Source: Alphaproteobacteria bacterium
GTDB taxonomy: Bacteria > Pseudomonadota > Alphaproteobacteria > RF32 > CAG-239
Assembly: GCA_045116295.1 (NCBI GenBank)
Contig: JBGULQ010000003.1
Location: 17,393-81,392, forward strand
Length of the DNA: 64,000 bases
Direction: 5' to 3'
The notes beneath the pieces are model-generated. The model searched no databases. It was not told where the DNA came from and saw only the letters and a list, made by a program, of their open reading frames with translations. This document shows positions 2,192 through 53,983 of the stretch, in pieces. Positions within the stretch are counted from its first letter, which is position 1; the number at the start of each line of letters is the position of its first letter. The position numbers and the translations under genes are program-made.

Positions 2192-2905
2192 ATGATGACT
2201 ATTTATACCTATGACATGCTGGATAAAGAATTAAAAGACGGAAAGGCTAATGTGTGTATGTCTTCTGAAAGCGCGCGGATTATTATCCCGACAGCGTGTG
2301 ATGAGGTTGTGGGGTTTACAAACCCTGATGATTTGGATGTTGATTTGTTGGCTCGTTGGAAGCAGGGAGAGAGAGGAGAGGAATTTGAAAATCAAAAACT
2401 AAAACCGGGGGATTGTTTGGTTGTTTATGATAATGAAAATGATTTTAACCGTGTTTTGAAGAAATATCCTGATTGGTACAAGACTCCTGAGGGAATTAAG
2501 CAGGTTATTGAAGATTTGTATAACTGTGCCGATTTGGGGGCTAAAAACGTTGAGCCGGCAATATGGAACAGCGACCTGAGGTGGGCAAAAGGTGTCAGTC
2601 TGGTGACTCCTGATGGCAAAAAAGTTGATGAAAAAACTTGGCAGGATAATCTCGGAAAAGCACTAAGTGTTCAGAAATTTCCTTTGCCGGTAAAACAGTA
2701 TTTTATTTTACTTAATCCGGGAGATAAGATAATGTCGCCGGAGGGAAGAGTTCAAACAGCCGGAGTTGTATCGGCGATTGCAGTAAAACAGCCGCATGGC
2801 GGATGGAATATGGTGCAGTTGTGTCCCCGCGGATATAAGGTTGATGAGGCACATAGTGTAAGTCAAGTGCGGATAAAACCACATGAGCAGGAAAGTACCA
2901 GATAA
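2192..2905 (+). CDS. Hypothetical protein
   Basis: 237-aa ORF with SD (gagga) upstream; no recognisable family. Confidence 0.7.
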   Translation: MMTIYTYDMLDKELKDGKANVCMSSESARIIIPTACDEVVGFTNPDDLDVDLLARWKQGERGEEFENQKLKPGDCLVVYDNENDFNRVLKKYPDWYKTPEGIKQVIEDLYNCADLGAKNVEPAIWNSDLRWAKGVSLVTPDGKKVDEKTWQDNLGKALSVQKFPLPVKQYFILLNPGDKIMSPEGRVQTAGVVSAIAVKQPHGGWNMVQLCPRGYKVDEAHSVSQVRIKPHEQESTR

Positions 2906-2995
2906 TTAACAGATTGACAAAATTCTTGAAATATGATATTCCGCGCGGGTGTTTGAATTTATTATTTCTATTTTTAATGTCTAAATAATTATTGT

Positions 2996-3472
2996 ATGGA
3001 AGGCTATTATGTATCCAGATTCGTCTTGTTTCTGGTGTGTTTGGTTTGTGCTTTTGCGGTTTATGGTTCTCAGAGAATCAGATTCTGCATTAATAAGAAG
3101 GTATATAACCGATTTTTTGCCGTGATATTCGCGCTGTTGACCGCATATATTGTGTATGACAATGTTTGTTGCGGTTTGCCTGAAATGTGGGTGCCTGCAA
3201 TATTGGGGTATTTGTTCGTGTATTTTTGGGTGTTGGCTGTTTGGGACATGTATCTGCCATGCACTAAGCTTGAGGCTGATAAGGTATATAAAATGACAGT
3301 TATCGGAAGTACATGTATCGAATCGGGCGTGAATTATGTCGGCAATATTGAAACAGCTGATGGAAAAACAGTGCAGGTATATCTGAATGATGAACAAGCA
3401 GGGTGTTTTGAGGTGGATGTACAATTTTCTGAAATCTACTTTGGCAAAATTCAGGTATGTCGCGCCAAATAG
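2996..3472 (+). CDS. Hypothetical membrane protein (about 3 TM plus soluble C-terminus)
   Basis: Three hydrophobic segments; TTGACA-type promoter near 2914 and a terminator directly downstream. Confidence 0.7.
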   Translation: MEGYYVSRFVLFLVCLVCAFAVYGSQRIRFCINKKVYNRFFAVIFALLTAYIVYDNVCCGLPEMWVPAILGYLFVYFWVLAVWDMYLPCTKLEADKVYKMTVIGSTCIESGVNYVGNIETADGKTVQVYLNDEQAGCFEVDVQFSEIYFGKIQVCRAK

Positions 3473-3478
3473 CTTTTG

Positions 3479-3514
3479 ATTAAACCCGCTGAGTGAGGAC
3501 TTGGCGGGTTTAAT
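3479..3514 (+). terminator. Intrinsic terminator hairpin
   Basis: attaaacccgc...gcgggtttaat inverted repeat 7 nt after the stop. Confidence 0.65.
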
Positions 3515-3552
3515 GTATATAATGCTATAATATTTGGTAGAGAGTGAAAAGT

Positions 3553-3586
3553 AAAACGGCCTGCTCATAATTGAGCAGGCCGTTTT
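3553..3586 (-). terminator. Intrinsic terminator hairpin
   Basis: aaaacggcctgctca-taat-tgagcaggccgtttt perfect inverted repeat downstream of 3601..4077. Confidence 0.75.
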
Positions 3587-3600
3587 CGGTGCAGAATAGC

Positions 3601-4077
3601 TCACGCTATGTGTGATCTTACCCATTCAAAGCTTGCGACAGACCACGTGTTGCGGATATGCTCGCGTACGCGAGTATTCAGGGATAGAATAATCTTTCCA
3701 GCGAACAATTGAACTATCCAGAAAGCAAGCTTTTCAGGATAATTGAACAAAACCTTCTCAATCTGGTCAGGAGTTGGGTATAATTCTCTGTCCAGAAATT
3801 CACGGGCAAAAGCCATTGCCCAAATCTCAACTAGTAGGCTTTTTTCTTCATCGTTTGTCACTATTGTATCCTCATCAGTCAAAAGCTGTGTAAACAGCTG
3901 GGGCAGGTTAGCAAGATGTGATCGCATCTCGTCATTTCTCTCCATTTTTAGAAAAAGTCGAAAAGAGTAACCTTTTTTATAGATTACATCACCTCTGCAA
4001 CCACTAGGCATCTTTGTAACTTCTGCACTCGGAGGAATTTCGCATTCGCCAATGAAAAAAGTAGGATATCTTTCCAT
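3601..4077 (-). CDS. Hypothetical protein
   Basis: 158-aa ORF followed by a terminator; no recognisable family. Confidence 0.65.
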   Translation of the reverse strand: MERYPTFFIGECEIPPSAEVTKMPSGCRGDVIYKKGYSFRLFLKMERNDEMRSHLANLPQLFTQLLTDEDTIVTNDEEKSLLVEIWAMAFAREFLDRELYPTPDQIEKVLFNYPEKLAFWIVQLFAGKIILSLNTRVREHIRNTWSVASFEWVRSHIA

Positions 4078-4217
4078 AAAAACAGTTTTTAAAAATAATA
4101 GTGGATAAAAATAAATTTTGTAACATAGTAGAATAAATTGATTTGAAAGTCAAGTGTTTTGACAAAAAACGTTTTTTTGTTAATTTGTAAATTTTTTCCT
4201 TTTTAATGTATGGAAAT

Positions 4218-6938: not shown

Positions 6939-7469
6939 ATGGCTGCTCGTTGGTATGTCGTGCATGTATATTCGGGTTCGGAGAAAAAAGTTGCCGAATC
7001 GCTGAAAGAACAAGCCGTATTGAAAAATATGCAAGACAAAATTTTGGAAGTTATGGTACCAACCGAAAATATTGTCGAAGTTAAGAAAGGTGCAAAAGTC
7101 AATTCTGAGCGCAAATTCTTTCCGGGCTATGTTTTGGTCAAAATGGAAATGTCTGATGATGCCTGGATGGTAATCAGAAATACTCCTCGTGTTACAAATT
7201 TCTTAGGTCCTCGTAATAAACCGTTGCCGATTTCTGATGCGGAAGCAAATCGCATTATCAAGCAGATTGAGGAAGGTGTTGAGCGTCCGCAGACGATTGT
7301 TAAGTACGAAATTGGTGAACAAGTTCGTGTTTGCGACGGTCCGTTTGCATCGTTTATCGGTTTGGTTGAGGACGTTGATGTTGAGAAATCCCGCCTGAAA
7401 TTGTCGGTTTCTATTTTCGGGCGTTCTACGCCGGTTGAACTTGAATTTGGTCAAGTTGAAAAGGTCTAG
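6939..7469 (+). CDS. nusG: Transcription termination/antitermination factor NusG
   Basis: WYVVHVYSGSEKKV, FFPGYVLV, KOW motif, SIFGRSTPVELEF. Confidence 0.98.
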   Translation: MAARWYVVHVYSGSEKKVAESLKEQAVLKNMQDKILEVMVPTENIVEVKKGAKVNSERKFFPGYVLVKMEMSDDAWMVIRNTPRVTNFLGPRNKPLPISDAEANRIIKQIEEGVERPQTIVKYEIGEQVRVCDGPFASFIGLVEDVDVEKSRLKLSVSIFGRSTPVELEFGQVEKV

Positions 7470-7547: not shown

Positions 7548-8018
7548 ATGTTGAAATCTTTTTTCTCTGAATTTAAACAATTCGCAATGCGCGGTAATGT
7601 TATTGACATGGCTGTCGGTATCATCATCGGTGCCGCTTTCGGTAAAATCGTAGACTCTATGGTTAAAGATGTTTTGATGCCGCCAATCGGGTTGCTGTTG
7701 GGTAAAGTTGATTTTTCTGATTTGAAGTTGGTCTTGTCGGCAGGGGAGAATCCTGTTGCTATCAACTACGGTTTGTTTATTAACGCTTTAATCAGCTTTT
7801 TGATTGTTGCTTTTTCAGTATTTATTTTGATTAAAGCTCTGAATAAAATCCAATCTGCAGTTGATAAAAAAGCTGCTGATGCCGAAGCTGCTGCTCCGAC
7901 AACAAAGCAATGCCCGTATTGCATGTCCACAATTGACATCAATGCAACACGTTGTCCGCATTGTACTTCAGAGCTTGAAGCTGCTAAAAAGCCGGCAAAA
8001 GCCAAAGCAACAAAGTAA
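7548..8018 (+). CDS. mscL: Large-conductance mechanosensitive channel with C-terminal zinc-ribbon (CPYC...CPHC)
   Basis: [28 protein letters not shown] and [18 protein letters not shown] MscL motifs. Confidence 0.95.
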
Positions 8019-8228: not shown

Positions 8229-8669
8229 ATGGCTGTTAAATCTAAAAAGAAAATTTTAGGATTAATCAAGCTGCAAATCCCCGCTGGAAAGGCAAACCCT
8301 TCTCCTCCGGTTGGTCCGGCTTTGGGCCAAAAAGGCTTGAATATTATGGAATTTTGTAAGGCTTTCAATGCTGCTACACAAAAGATGGAACCGGGTGTTC
8401 CTGTTCCGGTTGTGATTACCGCTTATGAAGACAAGTCTTTCACTTTCGTTACAAAATTGCCGCCGGTTGCTTATTATATTAAGACCGCTGCTAAAGTTAA
8501 ATCCGCTTCTAAAGAACCGGGCAAATCTTTTGCCGGCCAAATTACAATGGCTCAAGTAAAAGAAATTGCTACCGCTAAATTGCCGGATTTGAATTGTTCA
8601 ACAGTTGAAGCCGCTATGAACATGGTTAAAGGTCAAGCTGTTTCAATGGGTATTAAGGTAGTGGAGTAG
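8229..8669 (+). CDS. rplK: 50S ribosomal protein L11
   Basis: [35 protein letters not shown]. Confidence 0.99.
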
Positions 8670-8673
8670 AGCA

Positions 8674-9357
8674 ATGGCAGGAAAAAGAATTACTAATCTT
8701 TATAAGAATATTGATAAGTCAAAATTGTATTCTTTGAAGGAAGCTGTTAAGCTCGTTAAAGAAAACGCCAATGCTAAATTTGATGAAACTGTCGATTTGG
8801 CTATCAATTTGGGCGTTGATCCGAAATATGCCGACCAAATGGTCAGAGGCGTTTGCTCTCTGCCTAATGGTACAGGTAAAACCGTTCGCGTAGCTGTTTT
8901 GGCTCAAGGCGAAAAAGCTGATGAAGCTAAAGCTGCCGGTGCAGATGTTGTCGGTGCAGAAAATTTGATTGACTCTATCCTTTCAGGTAAAGTTGATTTT
9001 GATCGCTGCATTGCAACTCCCGATATGATGGGTATGGCCGGTAAGGTTGCTCGTATCTTGGGTCCGAAAGGTTTGATGCCAAACCCGAAACTCGGTACAG
9101 TAACTATGGACGTTGCCGGTGCTGTTAAAAAGGCAAAAGCCGGTGAGGTTCAATATCGTGCTGAAAAAACCGGTATTGTTCATGCCGGAATCGGTAAAGT
9201 AAGCTTTAGCGAAGAAGCAATTTATGAAAATGCCAAAACTTTAATTGATGCTATCATTAAAGCTAAACCGGCAGGTGCCAAAGGAACTTATATGAAGAAA
9301 ATTTGCATAAGTTCGACTATGGGTGCCGGTGTGCATGTTGACCTTGCCAATCTTTAA
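8674..9357 (+). CDS. rplA: 50S ribosomal protein L1
   Basis: [33 protein letters not shown]. Confidence 0.99.
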
Positions 9358-9361
9358 TGAT

Positions 9362-9506
9362 TGGCGCCTTGCTTGACACTTTTTCGCTTATGTACTGTTT
9401 TTGGTACACTGCGCTCAAAAGTGTCGTCGCAATCCGCTCAATCCTTAAAGATTTCTGAGAGGTGGCGCCTTGCTTGATGTTTTTTGCTTATATCAATAAG
9501 CAAGGC
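9362..9506. repeat. Direct repeat (15 nt identical, about 29 nt imperfect, period 101) with nested hairpins
   Basis: tggcgccttgcttga at 9362-9376 and 9463-9477; the inverted partner aagcaaggc is at 9498-9506. Confidence 0.75.
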
Positions 9507-9567
9507 ATGAAGAGTTTGGGGCGGGCTATCGTCCGTCCCGCATTCTCGGAAAAATTTCCGAGAGACT

Positions 9568-9613
9568 GTCCAAGACTGTAGGTGGGTAACCTTAAATATC
9601 CTACATAGACGGG
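9568..9613 (+). promoter_or_regulatory. Ribosomal protein L10 leader (autogenous control element)
   Basis: gtccaagactgtaggt...ttaa...cctacatagacgg matches the known L10-leader pattern (AAGAC-x-GYAGG...CCTRC-x-TAGAC) upstream of rplJ. Confidence 0.8.
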
Positions 9614-9724
9614 AGTTGATAAATTTTATTTTTCTCCTGGACAGATTAACCCCACGGCCGTAAGGCGGTGGAAATATTAAATCAAACATTGCCTTCGGGT
9701 TATGTTTTATTTGGAGATAGAAAA

Positions 9725-10207
9725 GTGAATCGTGATGAAAAAGCACAGTTGCTCGAAGAATTGAAGCAGTTGTTTAATGATTCCGAATCGGTTGTTATTT
9801 CCCACTATAAGGGTCTGACAGTTGCCGAAGTTTCGGAATTACGCGACAATATCCGCAAAGCCGGTGCCGGTTTTAGAGTAACCAAAAATCGCATCACACG
9901 TCTGGCTCTGAAAGATACAAAGTTTGCAGATTTGGCTGATAAGTTCACTGGTCCGACCGCTATTGCGTTTGCCAAAGATCCTATCGCCGCTTGCAAGGCT
10001 TGTGTAGAATTTGCTAAAGGAAACGAAAAGTTGGTTATCCTTGGCGGTGCTATGGGAACCGGTATTTTGTCAGTTGATGAAATCAAAAGATTGGCAAGCA
10101 TTCCATCTATGGACGAGTTGCGCGCCAAAATTATCGGTTTGTTGCAGGCTCCTGCCGCTCAACTGGCTCGCGTTACCAAAGCTTATTCAGAGAAAGAAGC
10201 AGCTTAA
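9725..10207 (+). CDS. rplJ: 50S ribosomal protein L10
   Basis: YKGLTVAEVSELR, FRVTKNRITRLAL, FTGPTAIAF. GTG start at 9725 with SD ggag. Confidence 0.97.
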   Translation: MNRDEKAQLLEELKQLFNDSESVVISHYKGLTVAEVSELRDNIRKAGAGFRVTKNRITRLALKDTKFADLADKFTGPTAIAFAKDPIAACKACVEFAKGNEKLVILGGAMGTGILSVDEIKRLASIPSMDELRAKIIGLLQAPAAQLARVTKAYSEKEAA

Positions 10208-10265
10208 GTGCTGTGTGTGTTGTAATTTTTAACGAACAAATTTAATTTATTTATGGAGAAAAAAA

Positions 10266-10637
10266 ATGGCCGATTTAGCCAAGTTAGTAGATGAATTGTC
10301 AGCCTTGACCATTATGGAAGCTGCTGATCTTTCAAAAATGTTAGAAGAAAAATGGGGCGTTTCTGCCGCTGCTGCCGTAGCTGTTGCTGCCGGTGGTGCT
10401 GCAGGTGCTGCTGCCGCTGAAGAAAAAGACGAATTCGAAGTTGTTTTGGTTGCTGCCGGTGACAACAAGATTAACGTTATTAAAGAAATCCGTGCTATCA
10501 CTCAATTGGGCTTGAAAGAAGCTAAAGATTTGGTTGATGGTGCTCCGAAGACAATTAAAGAAAGTGCTCCTAAGGCTGAAGCTGAAGAAATCAAGAAGAA
10601 ACTTGAAGAAGCCGGTGCTAAGGTTGAATTGAAGTAA
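10266..10637 (+). CDS. rplL: 50S ribosomal protein L7/L12
   Basis: Ala-rich hinge, [23 protein letters not shown]. Confidence 0.99.
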
Positions 10638-10660
10638 TTTTTCTTTAATTTGATTTTTAT

Positions 10661-10689
10661 AAAAGCCCCTGTTAAAGCAGGGGCTTTTT
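10661..10689 (+). terminator. Intrinsic terminator after rplL
   Basis: aaaagcccctg-ttaaag-caggggctttt. Confidence 0.85.
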
Positions 10690-10724
10690 GTTTGTCGAAA
10701 AAAGCAAAGATTTAAAATTTTTTG

Positions 10725-10753
10725 TTGACAAATTTGGGCAATATGCGTACAAT
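10725..10753 (+). promoter_or_regulatory. Sigma70-type promoter
   Basis: TTGACA (10725-10730), 17-nt spacer, TACAAT (10748-10753). Confidence 0.75.
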
Positions 10754-10859
10754 CTGCTCAATATTTTATTATTTTGGAATTCTAGGAACACGTACGTGTG
10801 TGTTTATTAATATTATTTAACTTCAAAAAAATTTTTTCGACTATGAAAAAGATTATTTT

Positions 10860-11130
10860 GGGGAGGATGGGTGCGACTTCTGGATCTCCTCCCGGCTCTA
10901 TGAGCTTTGCACCTAACGCCATTCAGTCCATCGCCCGCCGCAAGGCTTGAACCTCGAGATGTGCAAACATGGAAAGGAGGATACGAATTCGGGCGGATCC
11001 CTCTGGACAGAGGGGAGCCCACAGGCTCTTTGGTAACGCCTTTTTGCATGAGCACAGGTAGTGTCGCAGACGCGTTGCCGGCGTGTTAATTATTTTGAAC
11101 CATAACAAACCCCGCTTCGGCGGGGTAAAA
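10860..11130 (+). ncRNA. Candidate structured ncRNA or cis-element of unknown family
   Basis: GC-rich block in AT-rich flanks with multiple hairpins, including two GCAA tetraloops and a C(UUCG)G loop (see findings). Confidence 0.5.
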
Positions 11131-11157
11131 ATTTTTAAAAAGATGTTTGTTTTTTGC

Positions 11158-11186
11158 TTGCAAGAATCAAAAATGTGAGTCATTAT
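11158..11186 (+). promoter_or_regulatory. Probable rpoB promoter
   Basis: TTGCAA-N17-CATTAT about 200 nt upstream of the rpoB start. Confidence 0.5.
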
Positions 11187-11382
11187 CCGCTCGAATTTAA
11201 AAGTGCGAATCGCACTGAATTGCATGCAATTATTTTATCTGCTCATCAAGAGGAACATTTTTCCGCGGGTTTGGTGGGTTTTTCCGTTTTTAAAAGAATA
11301 ATATTTTTCAACCTTCTGCGGTCGGGATTCAAAAAATTTTTGATAGTATTGTCGCAGAACATAACCATGAGGATTGTACAAG

Positions 11383-14300
11383 ATGAAAGAATCTTATACG
11401 AGCAAAAGACGTGTAAGAAGAAACTTTGGCAGAATCGATGCTGTATCGGAAATGCCGAGTTTGATTGAAGTCCAAACCGCCTCATATCGCAGTTTTATTG
11501 AAGGAAAAGACTGTGAGTTCGGCTTGGATCAAGTGTTCAAATCAATTTTCCCAATTAAAGATTTTTCAGGAACAGGCGAACTGGAGTTTGTAAAATATGA
11601 GCTCGAAACTCCAAAATATGACGTTGATGAATGTATCAAACGTGATATGACCTATGCTGCTCCGGTAAAAGCTACTTTGCGCTTGGTAGTATGGGATGTT
11701 GACGAATCAACCGGCGCAAAATCTATTCACGATATTAAAGAACAAGATGTTTATATGGGCGACATTCCATTGATGACGGACAAAGGTACTTTTATTGTTA
11801 ATGGTACCGAACGTGTCGTTGTATCACAAATGCATCGTTCTCCGGGGGTATTTTTTGACAGTGATAAGGGAAAAACAATTTCTTCCGGCAAATATTTGTT
11901 TGCTGCCCGCGTAATTCCTTATCGCGGTTCATGGCTCGATTTTGAGTTTGACTCAAAAGATTTGTTATATGCACGTATTGACCGTCGCCGTAAGTTGCCG
12001 ATTACATCTATTCTGTATTCTTTATATTCTAAAGAAACTGAAGAAAAGTTGAAGAAGTTGGCTAAGTCAGGCAAGAAGATTGACCGCAACGAAGTTAAAG
12101 GTATGGATAAAGAAGAAATTTTGAATTACTTCTATGATACCGAAGAATATGTTGCCGATAAAAAAGCGTGGAAAGTTAAATTTGTACCGGAGCGCATGAA
12201 AGGCGTGAAGTTGACCTTTGATTTGGTTAATGCTAAAACCGGTAAAGTTGTAGCCGAAACAGGCAAAAAGTTGCCGATGCGCATGGCTCAGAAGTTGGCT
12301 GATGAAGGTTTGGAATTTTATAAGGTTGCTGATGATCGTCTGATCGGTAAATTCTTGGCAACAGCTTTGGCTGATAAAAAGACCGGTGAAGTTTTGGCTG
12401 ACGCCGGTGCAGAAATTACCGCCGAATTGTTGGAAAAAATCCGTGATGCTAAGATTACCGAGATTAAGACATTATATATTGATTATACAAATGTCGGTCC
12501 GTATATCCGCAACACATTGGAAGTTGATAAAAACCACTGCCGTGAAGAGGCTTTGCTCGACGTATATCGTGTTATGCGTCCGGGTGAGCCTGCTACATAC
12601 GAGGCTGCTGACTTATTGTTCAAAGGTTTATTCTTTGACAATGAGCGTTATGATTTGTCTTCAGTTGGTCGTGTTAAATTGAATGCGGCGTTGGATATTC
12701 CTTTTGATGAGGCTCCGGATACATGCCATACTTTGCGTAAGGATGATATTTTGCGCATTGTTAAGCATTTGGTTGACTTACGTGACGGACATGGCGAAGT
12801 TGATGATATTGACCACTTGGGCAACCGTCGTGTTCGCTCAGTCGGTGAGTTGATGGAAAACCAATATCGCATGGGCTTGTTGCGTATGGAAAGAGCTATT
12901 CGTGAAAGAATGAGCGCTGAAGTCTTGAATAATGTTAAGCCGCAAGATTTGGTAAATGCAAAACCGATTGCTTCGGTTATCCGTGAGTTCTTCGGTTCTT
13001 CACAACTTTCACAATTTATGGACCAGAACAATCCATTGTCGGAAATTACACACAAACGTCGTCTGTCAGCTTTGGGACCGGGAGGTTTGTCTCGTGACCG
13101 TGCAGGTTTTGAAGTCCGCGACGTACACCCGACACACTATGGACGTATCTGCCCGATTGAAAGTCCTGAAGGTCCAAACATCGGTTTGATTAACTCTCTG
13201 TCAACCTATGCTCGTATCAACAAATACGGATTTATTGAATGCCCATATCGTAAAGTTGTAAACGGCAAGGTTACTGATGAAGTTGTTTATTTGTCAGCAG
13301 ATCAGGAAGGCAAATATATTATTGCTGAGGCTAATGCCGCAGTTAAGGAAGATGGTAGCTTTGTAAAAGATACAATTGCTTGCCGTAAGGCCGGTGAGTT
13401 TGAGTTTGCAACACCGAAAGAAATTAACTTTATTGACGTTGCGCCTCAACAGTTGGTGTCTGTTGCAGCAGCTTTGATTCCGTTCTTGGAAAACGATGAC
13501 GCTAACCGTGCTTTGATGGGTTCAAACATGCAGCGTCAAGGTGTGCCTTTGTTGCGCTCGGAAGCTCCGTTGGTCGGTACCGGTATGGAAGCAACCGTGG
13601 CCAAAGATTCCGGTGCGACAGTTGTATGTAAATATGACGGTGTTGTTGATGCAGTTGATGCTAATCGTATTGTGGTTCGCTCCGAGAGTAAGAACTCAAA
13701 CGATGTCGGTGTTGAAATTTATAAACTGCAAAAATTCCGTCGTTCAAATCAAAATACCTGCATTAACCAAGTTCCGTTGGTAAAAGTCGGTGATAAAGTA
13801 AAAGCCGGCGATATTATGGCTGATGGTCCTTGTACCGATATGGGTGAGTTGGCTTTGGGTAAAAATATGTTGGTTGCCTTTATGCCATGGAACGGTTTGA
13901 ACTACGAAGATGCTATTTTGCTGTCTGAGAGAGTTTCACGTGATGACGTTTTGACCTCACTTCATATTGAAGAATTTGAAGTTATGGCTCGTGATACCAA
14001 ACTCGGACAAGAAGAAATTACCCGTGATATTCCGAACGTTGGTGAAGAAGCTTTGAAGAACCTTGATGAGGCCGGTATTGTTTATATCGGTGCTGAAGTT
14101 AAGGCCGGCGATATTTTGGTCGGTAAAGTTACACCGAAAGGTGAATCTCCGGTAACTCCTGAAGAAAAATTGTTGCGTGCCATCTTTGGTGAAAAAGCAA
14201 GTGATGTCCGCGATACTTCGTTGCGTGTTCAACCGGGTATTGAGGGTATTGTAGTTGACGTTCAAGTCTTTTCACGTCGTGGCGTTGAAAAGGACGAGCG

Positions 14301-15546
14301 TGCTTTGGCTATTGAGCAACAAGAAATTTCGCAATTAGCTAAGGATCGTGATGATGAAATTGCGATTATTCGTAAGATTTTTGAAGAACGCTTGAAATCT
14401 ATGTTAATCGGTCAGACAGTTGTTGATGCCCCGAAGGGTATTGCAAAGAAAACTGTTTTGAAAGAAAAAGATTTTGAAGCTGTTCCGTCATCACAATGGC
14501 GTAAGATTGTGGTTAAAGATGACAAAGTTATGTCAAAAGTTGAGGAATTTGTTGCAGCTTATGACGTACGTGTTGAAGGTGTCCAAAAGCACTTTGATGA
14601 TAAGGTTGAAAAAGTACAACGCGGTGATGACTTGTTGCCGGGTGTATTGAAGACTGTTAAGGTATTTATTGCAACCAAACGTAAAATGCAAACCGGTGAT
14701 AAAATGGCCGGTCGTCACGGTAACAAAGGTACCGTTTCACGCGTTTTGCCGTTGCAGGATATGCCTTATATGGAAGATGGTACACCGGTTGATATCGTGT
14801 TGAACCCGTTGGGTGTGCCTTCACGTATGAATGTCGGACAAATTTTGGAAACTCACCTTGGTTGGGCCGCCAAAGAATTGGGTAAGCAACTCAATGAAAT
14901 GTGCGAGCAGTACAAACGCGGTGAAAAGACCATTAAACAACTGAATGACAAGTTGAAAGAAATCTACGGAGATAAGCAATATAAGAATGAGATTTCAAAA
15001 CTGACCGATGATGAAAAGGTTGAGATGATCTCGAATGTTAAGAACGGTATTCCGGTTGCTACTCCGGTATTTGACGGTGCGCACGAAGATGATATTAACC
15101 GTATGCTTGATATGGCAGGACTTCCAACTTCAGGCCAGATTGATTTGTATGATGGTCGTACCGGTGAAAAATTTGACCGTAAAGTTACCGTCGGTATCAT
15201 TTATATGATTAAACTGCACCACATTGTTGATGAAAAGATGCACGCTCGTTCAGTCGGTCCGTACTCTTTGGTTACTCAACAACCTTTGGGCGGTAAGGCT
15301 CAATTCGGCGGACAACGTTTCGGTGAAATGGAGGTTTGGGCATTACAGGCTTATGGTGCTGCTTATACCTTGCAAGAAATGTTGACGGTTAAGTCCGATG
15401 ATGTTGCCGGCAGAACAAAAGTTTATGAAGCTATTGTTCGCGGTGAAGAAGGATTTGAAGCCGGCGTTCCTGAGTCATTTAACGTTTTGGTTAAAGAAAT
15501 CAAATCGTTGTGCTTGAACGTAGAACTTTTGAACGAAGCCATTTAA
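11383..15546 (+). CDS. rpoB: DNA-directed RNA polymerase subunit beta
   Basis: [53 protein letters not shown] 11383 preferred (SD gagga). Confidence 0.99.
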
Positions 15547-32253: not shown

Positions 32254-32329
<76 letters not shown>

Positions 32330-32510
32330 TTAAAGGTTTCCTATTCTGAAAATCTCCGCCGATTAATATCGACGGAGATTTTGCGTTGCTAACTCTTGCT
32401 CCTAAGCATTAAAAATGCTAAGTCGCTTCGGTCACTCGTATTGTAACATTTGCTATGCACGCGGTTGCGGCAAAGCAAATTAACAATACTTCGCCCGTCG
32501 TTGACCAAAC

Positions 32511-32654
32511 AGACATTTAGTCAGGTTGGTCTTTCTCCGGCGCATTCGTAATGCGTGGGGGAAAAGTTCGAGTCACTTAACCGGCACCATTAAAGGTTTC
32601 CTATTCTGAAAATCTCCGTCGATAGAAATCGGCGGAGATTTTGCGTTGCTAACT
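32511..32654 (+). pseudogene. Degenerate tandem copy of tRNA-Thr(CGT) plus its terminator
   Basis: 32281-32394 repeats at 32541-32654 (period 260) with substitutions in the variable loop/T arm; the D-arm is degenerate (tttagtcaggttggt). Confidence 0.8.
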
Positions 32655-32731
32655 ATTTATTTTAAAATTCATCTTGCCAAAAATATCGAAAAAGTGTTAT
32701 AATGGTGTAGTATAAAAAGAGGACAACTCGG

Positions 32732-41496: not shown

Positions 41497-41556
41497 AAAA
41501 AAGCCTCCATGAAGGAGGCTTTTTTAATGGTGCGCGACTAAAGCGATTATCGGACT
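41497..41556 (-). repeat. Third, degenerate copy of the tRNA-Thr(GGT) 3' end plus terminator
   Basis: Minus strand agtccgat...gcgcaccattaaaaaaagcctcc...ggaggctttttt matches the tRNA 3' end and terminator at 42565-42631. Confidence 0.7.
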
Positions 41557-41614
41557 AACCACGCGCAAGAATGTAAAGCGTTGGAAGATAAGATACAAAC
41601 ACTTACTAGTTAAA

Positions 41615-42208
41615 TTACCACGATTTTTTAAAATCGCTGAAAAATTCATCAAGTTCATCCATGGTTACAAAAGAATCATTATTAAAGTCTAGACTGTGAA
41701 AGCTAGGGTAATCAATTGAGGTAAAATCAAAATTGACGTATTCATCAAAAGATATTTTTTGATTATGATCGGCATCCACCATCTCAGCATATAGTAAGCC
41801 AAATTTTGATATGTAATTACCTTGAAATGAGCTACGATATTCTTCCGTAGATATATATCCGTCACTGTTTTTATCCATATAAGCAAAATAATTTTTTAAA
41901 TCTGTCTGATATTTTGTAGGGTTAACCATTTCGATAAACCAATATTGTTGGAGTGAAATGTTGTCATTTTTTTCTAGATTTAAGCTTTTATATATATTTG
42001 ATAAATGGGCACGATAACCTGTATGTCCATCACAGACAGCATACTCTTTTTTCGAAATTTTTCCATCGTGATTAAAATCATATTGTTGCATTATTTGAAA
42101 GGTATCAGGCGGTGAATTATTTGAATTTACGTTAGCAGGAGCCATTTGAGCGCAAGCATCAGATGTAATGAAATAAATAAGTGATATATAGCTCAATATT
42201 CTTAACAT
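41615..42208 (-). CDS. Secreted EF-hand calcium-binding repeat protein
   Basis: Signal peptide (...SDACA); EF loops DFNHDGKISKKE, DKNSDGYISTEE, DADHNQKISFDE, DFNNDSFVTMDE, plus one degenerate loop. Confidence 0.85.
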   Translation of the reverse strand: MLRILSYISLIYFITSDACAQMAPANVNSNNSPPDTFQIMQQYDFNHDGKISKKEYAVCDGHTGYRAHLSNIYKSLNLEKNDNISLQQYWFIEMVNPTKYQTDLKNYFAYMDKNSDGYISTEEYRSSFQGNYISKFGLLYAEMVDADHNQKISFDEYVNFDFTSIDYPSFHSLDFNNDSFVTMDELDEFFSDFKKSW

Positions 42209-42364
42209 TATAACCCCTGTGTAGTTATTAACGTCGATTATTCTACTATATGTCTATTAAAATTTAATTAAGTCCGATAGATAAAGAGAAATTGCTTAGC
42301 ACCTACAAATGACGTGAAAAGCACTTATCGGATAATGACGGAGTTAGTCCGTTTATACAGAAGA

Positions 42365-42529
42365 ACCATTAAAAAAACCTCCATAAGGGGAGGCTTTTTT
42401 AATGGTGCCGCTAGACGAAGGTGCGCGCGTTTCACACAGCGCATCTTTCGCTTACGCTCAAGACCTCGGACGCTTTGCGCCTCGTCCAACTTCGCAACAC
42501 TATGGCGTTGCTTGTTAGTCGGACTTACG
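42365..42529 (-). pseudogene. Split 3'-half copy of tRNA-Thr(GGT) with a 104-nt insert, plus duplicated terminator
   Basis: T-arm piece cgtaagtccga (42519-42529) and ctagcggcacca plus terminator (42365-42414) are separated by 42415-42518. Confidence 0.75.
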
Positions 42530-42602
42530 TTGCCCCCGTAAGTTCGCTTCTAACTGCGATCGAAACCATTAAAAAAGCCTCCATAAGGGGAGGCGTTTTT
42601 AA

Positions 42603-42677
42603 TGGTGCCGCTAGTAAGAATCGGACTTACGACCCCGTCATTACCAATGACGTGCTCTACCACTGAGCTATAGCGGC
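42603..42677 (-). tRNA. tRNA-Thr(GGT)
   Basis: 75-nt cloverleaf GCCGCTA...TAGCGGCACCA; anticodon arm cgtca-ttGGTaa-tgacg. Confidence 0.95.
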
Positions 42678-42719
42678 ATAATAATATTTATCTTGTCTGC
42701 TTCTTGCCTTTTCCTCGCA

Positions 42720-42872
42720 CGTCATTACCAATGACGTTCTTCGGCATCTAAGCTCAATGCGGTTGTTGTCACTTCCCTGCTTCGCTAAGATGTTCCGAAG
42801 AACTTGCAGACAAAAATGACATTCAATGTCATTTTTACTTAGCGTTACCACTGAGCTATAGCGGCATAATAA
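42720..42872 (-). pseudogene. Split 5'-half copy of tRNA-Thr(GGT) with a 108-nt insert
   Basis: tRNA nt 1-20 plus 5' flank (42846-42872) and the anticodon arm (42720-42737) are separated by 42738-42845. Confidence 0.75.
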
Positions 42873-53691: not shown

Positions 53692-53905
53692 AAAAAAAGC
53701 GACATTAAGTCGCTTTTTTTAGGTATCTAGCTTCGTAAGGTTCGCGATAATATCGCAATTTCAATTCCGACTAATGCTTTTATTTTGCGTCGTTTACACT
53801 AGCTCATAAAAGCAAGTCTCATTGCGTCTCCTTATAAAAAGTGCGTTAAAGCACTTTTTATTGCGGCCGTACCATAAAAAAAAGCGACATTAAGTCGCTT
53901 TTTTT
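53692..53905. repeat. Duplicated terminator (29-nt direct repeat, period 185) flanking an about 155-nt hairpin-rich spacer behind tRNA-Glu
   Basis: aaaaaaagcgacattaagtcgcttttttt at 53692-53720 and 53877-53905. Confidence 0.8.
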
Positions 53906-53907
53906 AA

Positions 53908-53983
53908 TGGTGATCCCAGCGAGACTCGAACTCGCGTTACCGCCGTGAGAGGGCGATGTCCTAGGCCACTAGACGATGGGACC
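53908..53983 (-). tRNA. tRNA-Glu(CTC)
   Basis: 76-nt cloverleaf GGTCCCA...TGGGATCACCA; anticodon arm cgcc-ctCTCac-ggcg; GTTCGAGT T-loop. Confidence 0.95.

Follow-up and report, generated by a model that had tools for sequence, protein, structure and literature searches.

What is encoded in the long spacer between rplL and rpoB of a low-GC alphaproteobacterium from ruminant guts? In the window (the whole stretch of 64,000 nucleotides that was analyzed, to which all coordinates refer), rplL occupies 10266–10637 and the ATG of rpoB is at 11383, leaving the spacer of 745 nt given in the original prediction. The genome has 38% GC. From about 10850 to 11100, the spacer holds a block with 53%–56% GC between flanks with 24%–35% GC, the GC-rich block in AT-rich surroundings that had been pointed out. 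An unclassified small or ribozyme-like RNA with its own promoter, or else a long attenuator of rpoB, had been proposed for it. Our reading is that the block is a self-contained, accessory gene for a noncoding small RNA, with a stable and abundant product that does not control rpoB (probability of roughly 0.6).

Uncultured alphaproteobacteria of the RF32 type are frequent inhabitants of the guts of ruminants and humans; to our knowledge, nothing is known of their RNA biology. A literature search gave nothing relevant on a small RNA between rplL and rpoB. The nearest rplL proteins bear the names "Rhodospirillales/Alphaproteobacteria bacterium MAG" and "Azospirillum sp. CAG:260 / 47_25". The DNA runs with the locus are labeled bovine gut, sheep gut, rumen, or plain gut metagenome (a few are unlabeled). 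Upstream in the window, mscL (7548–8018) lies between nusG (6939–7469) and rplK (8229–8669) and splits the usually contiguous secE–nusG–rplKAJL cluster; its product carries a C-terminal CxxC...CxxC zinc-ribbon-like tail. In the relatives L106–L108, mscL is likewise found 3′ of nusG.

Promoters and terminators of the spacer

The features are given below in their order along the spacer. The identities refer to the sister lineage L115 (MAG Tb.RUG.69), the only carrier of the block found besides the organism's own contig (L114).

10661..10688, + strand: intrinsic terminator of rplL, a 12-bp stem followed by a T-run (terminator scan)
10725..10753, + strand: promoter a, TTGACA-N17-TACAAT, 11 of 12 consensus positions, predicted start at about 10760
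10760..10857, + strand: AU-rich 5′ segment with 24% GC, within which the RNA contigs start
10843..10950, + strand: 35-codon open reading frame without Shine–Dalgarno (SD) sequence, running through the 5′ part of the block
10860..10893, + strand: hairpin 1 of the predicted fold, GGGAGGA...UCCUCCC, with an irregular apical part
10894..10906, + strand: hairpin 2, GGCUC-UAU-GAGCU, invariant in all haplotypes seen
10907..10931, + strand: hypervariable linker, 56% identity to L115 and an insertion of 3 nt
10932..11033, + strand: central module, 92% identical to L115
11069..11100, + strand: terminator T1 and 3′ end of the RNA, hairpin 11069–11087 plus AAUUAUUUUG (terminator scan)
11109..11126, strand not assigned: second hairpin, C(UUCG)G, CCCCGC-UUCG-GCGGGG (called on both strands by the terminator scan)
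11158..11186, + strand: promoter b of rpoB, TTGCAA-N17-CATTAT, followed by a leader up to the ATG at 11383

The near-consensus promoter predicted after the rplL terminator is confirmed, and promoter a is 100% identical in L115. Sites of the same quality number seven in the 64-kb window, both strands counted, vs. 2.9 in shuffled sequences; only two of the seven have the optimal 17-nt spacing. About 30 nt 3′ of the predicted RNA start, at 10788–10799, is a 12-nt palindrome, ACACGTACGTGT, which occurs once in the window and is conserved in L115. This palindrome may be an operator or just a small hairpin.

With 8 of 12 consensus positions, promoter b is under the scanner cut-off. The match is weak, but the site is conserved at 96%–100% in relatives, with the block present or absent, and the RNA contigs of the rpoB leader start separately from those of the block; the idea that a second promoter serves rpoB is upheld. 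The similarity between promoters a and b (MAFFT alignment) is no better than in shuffled controls, and an origin of the block's promoter as a duplicate of the rpoB promoter and leader was rejected.

A discrete and abundant RNA that ends after T1

The RNA evidence consists of assembled contigs of public metatranscriptome runs from rumen and gut, drawn from the many runs with the block in the Logan index; such contigs carry no strand. In all 12 runs examined, which come from several studies, the block is recovered as one isolated contig per run. The contigs start at 10778–10831 and end at 11090–11106 in 11 of the runs (at 11045 in the other), with word depths of 3.5–34. The L115 version is present as isolated contigs of 351–360 nt in two further RNA runs, for a total of 14. 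Among the 12 runs, no contig connects the block with rplL or with the rpoB leader, the stretch 11107–11209 is uncovered, and the rpoB leader appears in separate contigs starting at about 11210–11221. The neighboring ribosomal-protein genes and rpoB are, in the same runs, either unassembled or present as short fragments of lower depth, and part of this neighbor-gene signal stems from related strains. Since each block contig stands alone, unconnected to rplL and the rpoB leader, the RNA is discrete and abundant, with a length of about 300–340 nt, and its 3′ end lies after T1. In rumen metatranscriptomes, it seems to rank among the host's more abundant transcripts. A discrete transcript from about 10760 to about 11130 had been anticipated; the contigs end earlier.

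That end falls 10–19 nt past hairpin 11069–11087, inside or just beyond AAUUAUUUUG. In run X33, an Illumina adapter is fused directly after 11100, which indicates a genuine molecule end at that position. The C(UUCG)G hairpin (11110–11125), with which the RNA had been expected to finish, is in none of the RNA contigs; it could be a back-up or bidirectional terminator. At the 5′ side, the contigs begin 20–70 nt inside the start predicted near 10760, in the stretch with 24% GC. Strain indels occur there at 10796 and 10816 and may break the assemblies, which would explain contig starts within the AU-rich segment. We infer the + strand as well as the start site. Promoter and terminator are both on the + strand, and the G·U pairs and the C>U changes that keep pairing are sensible on that strand only; the type of adapter joined at 11100 points weakly in the same direction.

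With Rfam 15, no family reaches its gathering score on either strand of the spacer. Under permissive conditions (E ≤ 10), matches fall on the rplL terminator (10661..10688), the origin of weak "hits," or on the second terminator hairpin; those on the body of the RNA are noise (SCARNA8 and HgcE, at 10–15 bits). The L115 homolog is likewise without a match. The absence from the known families, for which an Rfam search had been advised, applies to both carriers.

Promoter a (11 of 12 positions), terminator T1, and the isolated contigs in 14 RNA runs are the marks of an independent small-RNA gene. We regard it as a real new small-RNA gene, the product of which belongs to no known family, and the proposal of an unclassified small RNA with its own promoter is to that extent substantiated. 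More generally, isolated contigs in public metatranscriptomes are a useful means to validate small RNAs predicted from sequence alone.

Predicted fold, strain variation and distribution

The hairpins listed in the original prediction are all present as written, and most of them are in the minimum free energy fold. That fold has a z-score of −2.6 over 376 nt and of −1.4 over the GC-rich core of 245 nt; the modeled fold would thus be not much more stable than chance, and is not exceptional.

In hairpin 1, all five haplotypes preserve the outer 7-bp helix GGGAGGA/UCCUCCC. In haplotype X54v, with A5>G and G7>A, the helix is retained by a register slip of one base. The change G16>A converts a G·U pair into A–U, and the remaining changes are in the loop or in an internal loop. 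Altogether, none of the eight substitutions across the five haplotypes is disruptive, for which a rough hand estimate of chance gives about p = 0.01. The linker at 10907–10931 exists in a third version in run X52. In a contig of run X63, the core is joined to unrelated GC-rich sequence upstream.

The central module contains hairpins at 10937–10946, 10959–10970 (AUGU-loop-ACAU), 10999–11014 (deletable), and 11015–11028 (GAGCC-CACA-GGCUC), together with an invariant ACAUGGAAAGGAGG, single-stranded in the predicted fold. Its identity to L115 (92%) compares with 72% at third codon positions of rpoB. Most substitutions in the module are in loops; overall, paired and unpaired positions of the predicted fold are about equally affected. 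In L115, ACCUC becomes GCUCC without loss of its pairing to GGAGG, and a U·G pair is replaced by C–G through U11034>C. With RNAalifold on seven close haplotypes, none of the 66 predicted pairs has a double-sided change (the covariation term is positive).

Several elements vary between strains. The GCAA tetraloops that had been noted are present as written, but residues 10940–10943 are GCCA, outside the GNRA consensus, in most strains and in L115, and residues 10963–10966 are GCAA, GUAA, AUAA, or a UAA triloop. Similarly, the cgccc/gggcg helix and the cctct-ggac-agagg hairpin exist in the window, but a 22-nt deletion in some strains removes the CCCUCU-GGAC-AGAGGG hairpin with one arm of the enclosing helix. 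Some strains have a 3-nt deletion in the junction. In L115 and some strains, the terminator module (T1) bears a tandem duplication of 15–63 nt. With seven close haplotypes of low diversity and free of double-sided covariation, weak z-scores, and hairpins that are gained and lost, these data do not establish the proposed ribozyme-like, highly structured RNA. The structure-preserving substitutions are confined to hairpin 1, and the evidence for conserved structure is modest.

Homologs were searched with nhmmer and blastn against 121 retrieved loci, where the block matched only in L114 and L115. Exact scans of species genomes gave L115 only with a 25-mer (185,579 genomes), and L115 plus a chance match within a Bacteroidales gene with a 19-mer. 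The exact-pattern scan of the JGI metagenomes returned only the same contig as L115. In IMG/VR viral contigs, there were three chance matches in GC-rich genes, and none with a second pattern; BLAST against phage and plasmid collections gave matches to the terminator hairpins only, or nothing. A fragment of a phage or plasmid was rejected on the grounds that the body of the RNA matches in none of these collections or viral contigs; a MITE or an IS remnant was also rejected, the block being single-copy in the window and lacking flanking inverted repeats.

In L081, L082, L084, and L097–L105, with rplL proteins 97%–99% identical, the spacer is 315 nt long and without trace of the block. The flanks of L081, for which the DNA was compared, are 94%–96.5% identical to the window, and the 224 nt that directly precede rpoB (promoter b and leader) are 98.7% identical in the block-less relatives. 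Between L115 and the window, rplJL is 99% identical and rpoB 89.7% (72% at third codon positions). Along 8600–15000, the identity goes from 99%–100% over rplA–rplJ–rplL to 85%–92% over rpoB, and the switch is at the spacer, which places a recombination breakpoint at or beside the RNA gene. The left flank is thus a recent recombination tract, and the conservation figures, being confounded by it, need careful reading.

Other relatives (L085–L088, L091–L092, L110–L113) have unrelated cargo genes in the rplL–rpoB spacer (at about 2400–4100 of the locus), for hypothetical proteins of 203–379 aa, a Mac/hexapeptide acetyltransferase, and an autotransporter. The hypothetical proteins are recognized by neither Pfam nor PADLOC, and a defense-island context was rejected on that account. 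In this clade, the rplL/rpoB junction is a hot spot of insertions that vary between strains, and the RNA gene is accessory and narrowly distributed, varying in presence between strains.

In more distant relatives (L089–L096), of the human-gut "Azospirillum sp. 47_25" type and of another group, GC-richer stretches that can form hairpins lie 60–200 nt 3′ of rplL, directly behind its terminator (e.g., GGCACTGCTATCCGAATCGCAGCAGGGGCTGAATACGAATCGCTGC in L094 and GGGGAGATGCAAACATACGGCCGTCAGGATTACGGAG in L089); nhmmer detects no similarity between them and the block RNA. Elsewhere in the window, at 41497–42684, 42846–42872, and 53692–53932, repeated terminator-like hairpins occur (AAAAAAGCCTCC...GGAGGCTTTTTT followed by TAATGGTG), together with exact copies, 27–51 nt long, of the ends of a tRNA-Thr gene. 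They adjoin tRNA-Thr (42603–42677) and tRNA-Glu (53908–53983) and look like residual attachment sites of integrated elements. A direct repeat of 117 nt with 90% identity (32281–32397 and 32541–32657) begins within tRNA-Thr(CGT) (32254–32329) and bears palindromic hairpins of 34 nt (32349–32382 and 32609–32642).

Alternative readings and known systems

As a small-RNA gene, the block would work as follows. The strong sigma-70-type promoter at 10725–10753 would start transcription near 10760, and transcription would stop at hairpin 11069–11087 and its U-rich tract, so that the RNA would not exceed about 340 nt; a portion of about 300 nt (roughly 10800–11100) accumulates strongly. The gene is an accessory cassette in the strain-variable hot spot between rplL and rpoB. 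The size and abundance of the RNA and the missing coding signal suggest, as a best guess, a stable RNA acting in trans. The GC-rich hairpins would shield it from nucleases, and the single-stranded ACAUGGAAAGGAGG with the linker 10907–10931 may contact a protein or target RNAs. A target prediction (duplexfold, on start regions within the window) yielded meaningless long duplexes and was discarded. If functional, the RNA would give access, in an uncultured group, to regulation or competition at the level of strains, and would also form a new Rfam family. Counted against a small-RNA gene are the lack of compensatory double changes, the weak z-scores, and the many strain indels; the pattern of indels, duplications, and a hypervariable linker also fits weak constraint.

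The main rival, and an unlikely one, is that the block is a relic which is still expressed. A decayed cassette would have lost its cargo gene and kept the promoter, 5′ end, and terminators; the strong promoter would still yield a functionless RNA, which would accumulate only through the stability of its GC-rich hairpins. The unrelated cargo genes at the same site in relatives would suit it, as would the presence or absence of the block among close strains, the indels with the duplicated terminator module and the hypervariable middle, the missing covariation, and a GC content foreign to the 38% GC genome. However, no frame resembles a protein; the promoter (100%) and the central module (92%) are conserved well above the roughly 72% at neutral sites; hairpin 1 survives its eight substitutions; and two lineages that differ by about 8% both keep and express the RNA. 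Were the block a stable relic, it would teach that GC-rich blocks of tetraloop hairpins in AT-rich genomes do not by themselves prove a ribozyme-like RNA.

The alternative of a messenger for a protein of 35–36 aa (10843–10950), with a long structured 3′ UTR, or of a dual-function RNA, is improbable. In its favor, the frame remains open in L115 thanks to an in-frame insertion of 3 nt, with the stop at the same location; the other indels seen are all outside the frame, and the 5′ leader is AU-rich and unstructured. Against it, the frame has no SD sequence, whereas rpoB has one. Under hairpin 1, the changes across the five haplotypes are 7 nonsynonymous vs. 1 synonymous (R>G, G>C, G>E, and T>I are among the former), and hairpin 1 stays whole despite the substitutions that alter the peptide. 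Hardly anything of the C-terminal third remains in L115, the conserved codons overlap the stems of hairpins 1 and 2, and no gene is called here in the Logan contig that carries the locus. Pfam recognizes nothing in the six frames of the block. A word-index search of two + strand frames in a collection of 5.8 billion proteins gave no match, and tblastn of the six frames against all fetched loci found no coding relic. With HMMER, a minus-strand frame of 90 aa had just two matches among 1.84 billion representatives, both spurious frames over tandem DNA repeats without DNA similarity to the block. The 35-codon frame is probably not translated; the doubt with which it was first listed was justified by the missing SD sequence and by changes that are almost all nonsynonymous.

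A bolder variant of the small-RNA gene is very improbable. The block would be the founding member of a novel class of functional RNAs, accessory and exchanged horizontally, in which a hairpin scaffold flanks a diversifying, programmable recognition segment. At least three versions of segment 10907–10931 exist among near-identical flanks. Such a segment would recognize, e.g., transcripts of phages or of rival strains, or would sequester a host protein as a decoy.

An element acting in cis on rpoB, as leader or attenuator, or else a housekeeping RNA that has diverged (tmRNA, RNase P, 6S, or SRP RNA), would suit the position upstream of rpoB and a size and abundance like those of housekeeping RNAs, but is extremely improbable, because the promoter and leader of rpoB are conserved regardless of the block (near relatives retain them without it), the block RNA terminates before promoter b, the stretch 11107–11209 is not bridged by any RNA contig in the 12 runs, with the leader in contigs of its own, Rfam and ARAGORN return nothing, and a housekeeping RNA should not differ in presence among strains. 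The long rpoB attenuator of the original prediction is therefore abandoned. Its remark that signatures of RNase P, SRP RNA, and two-piece tmRNA are absent was correct. For the two-piece tmRNA, ARAGORN gives none in the window, the alpha_tmRNA model is unmatched, and neither ...CCACCA nor a T-loop was found by eye. RNase P, 6S, and SRP RNAs were rejected with no Rfam match, a fold that is a string of hairpins, and the absence from close relatives.

We return to the small-RNA gene and compare it with known systems. In E. coli, the rplL–rpoB spacer contains an attenuator and an RNase III site. The block shares with it the spacer and the hairpins with a terminator; in contrast, the block RNA is transcribed from a promoter of its own and stops short of a separate one for rpoB, and close relatives lack it.

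The trans-encoded small RNAs (sponges of the CsrB/RsmZ type, 6S RNA, and mycobacterial Ms1) come closer. Like their genes, the block is an independent intergenic transcription unit. The RNA is also comparable in its length of about 300–340 nt, its high abundance, its several hairpins, and the lack of a conserved reading frame; it has about 10 GGA motifs and an exposed AAGGAGG. Unlike them, it is unmatched in Rfam and found only in some strains. With respect to the sponges, the GGA of the sole clean hairpin loop (11005–11007) is lost in L115; with respect to 6S RNA, the fold is not a rod with a central bubble.

Finally, the block resembles the accessory islands at rplL/rpoB of gut Alphaproteobacteria in its site, its strain-variable presence, and its foreign composition. 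It differs from those islands in its cargo, here an RNA gene of 430 bp instead of protein genes.
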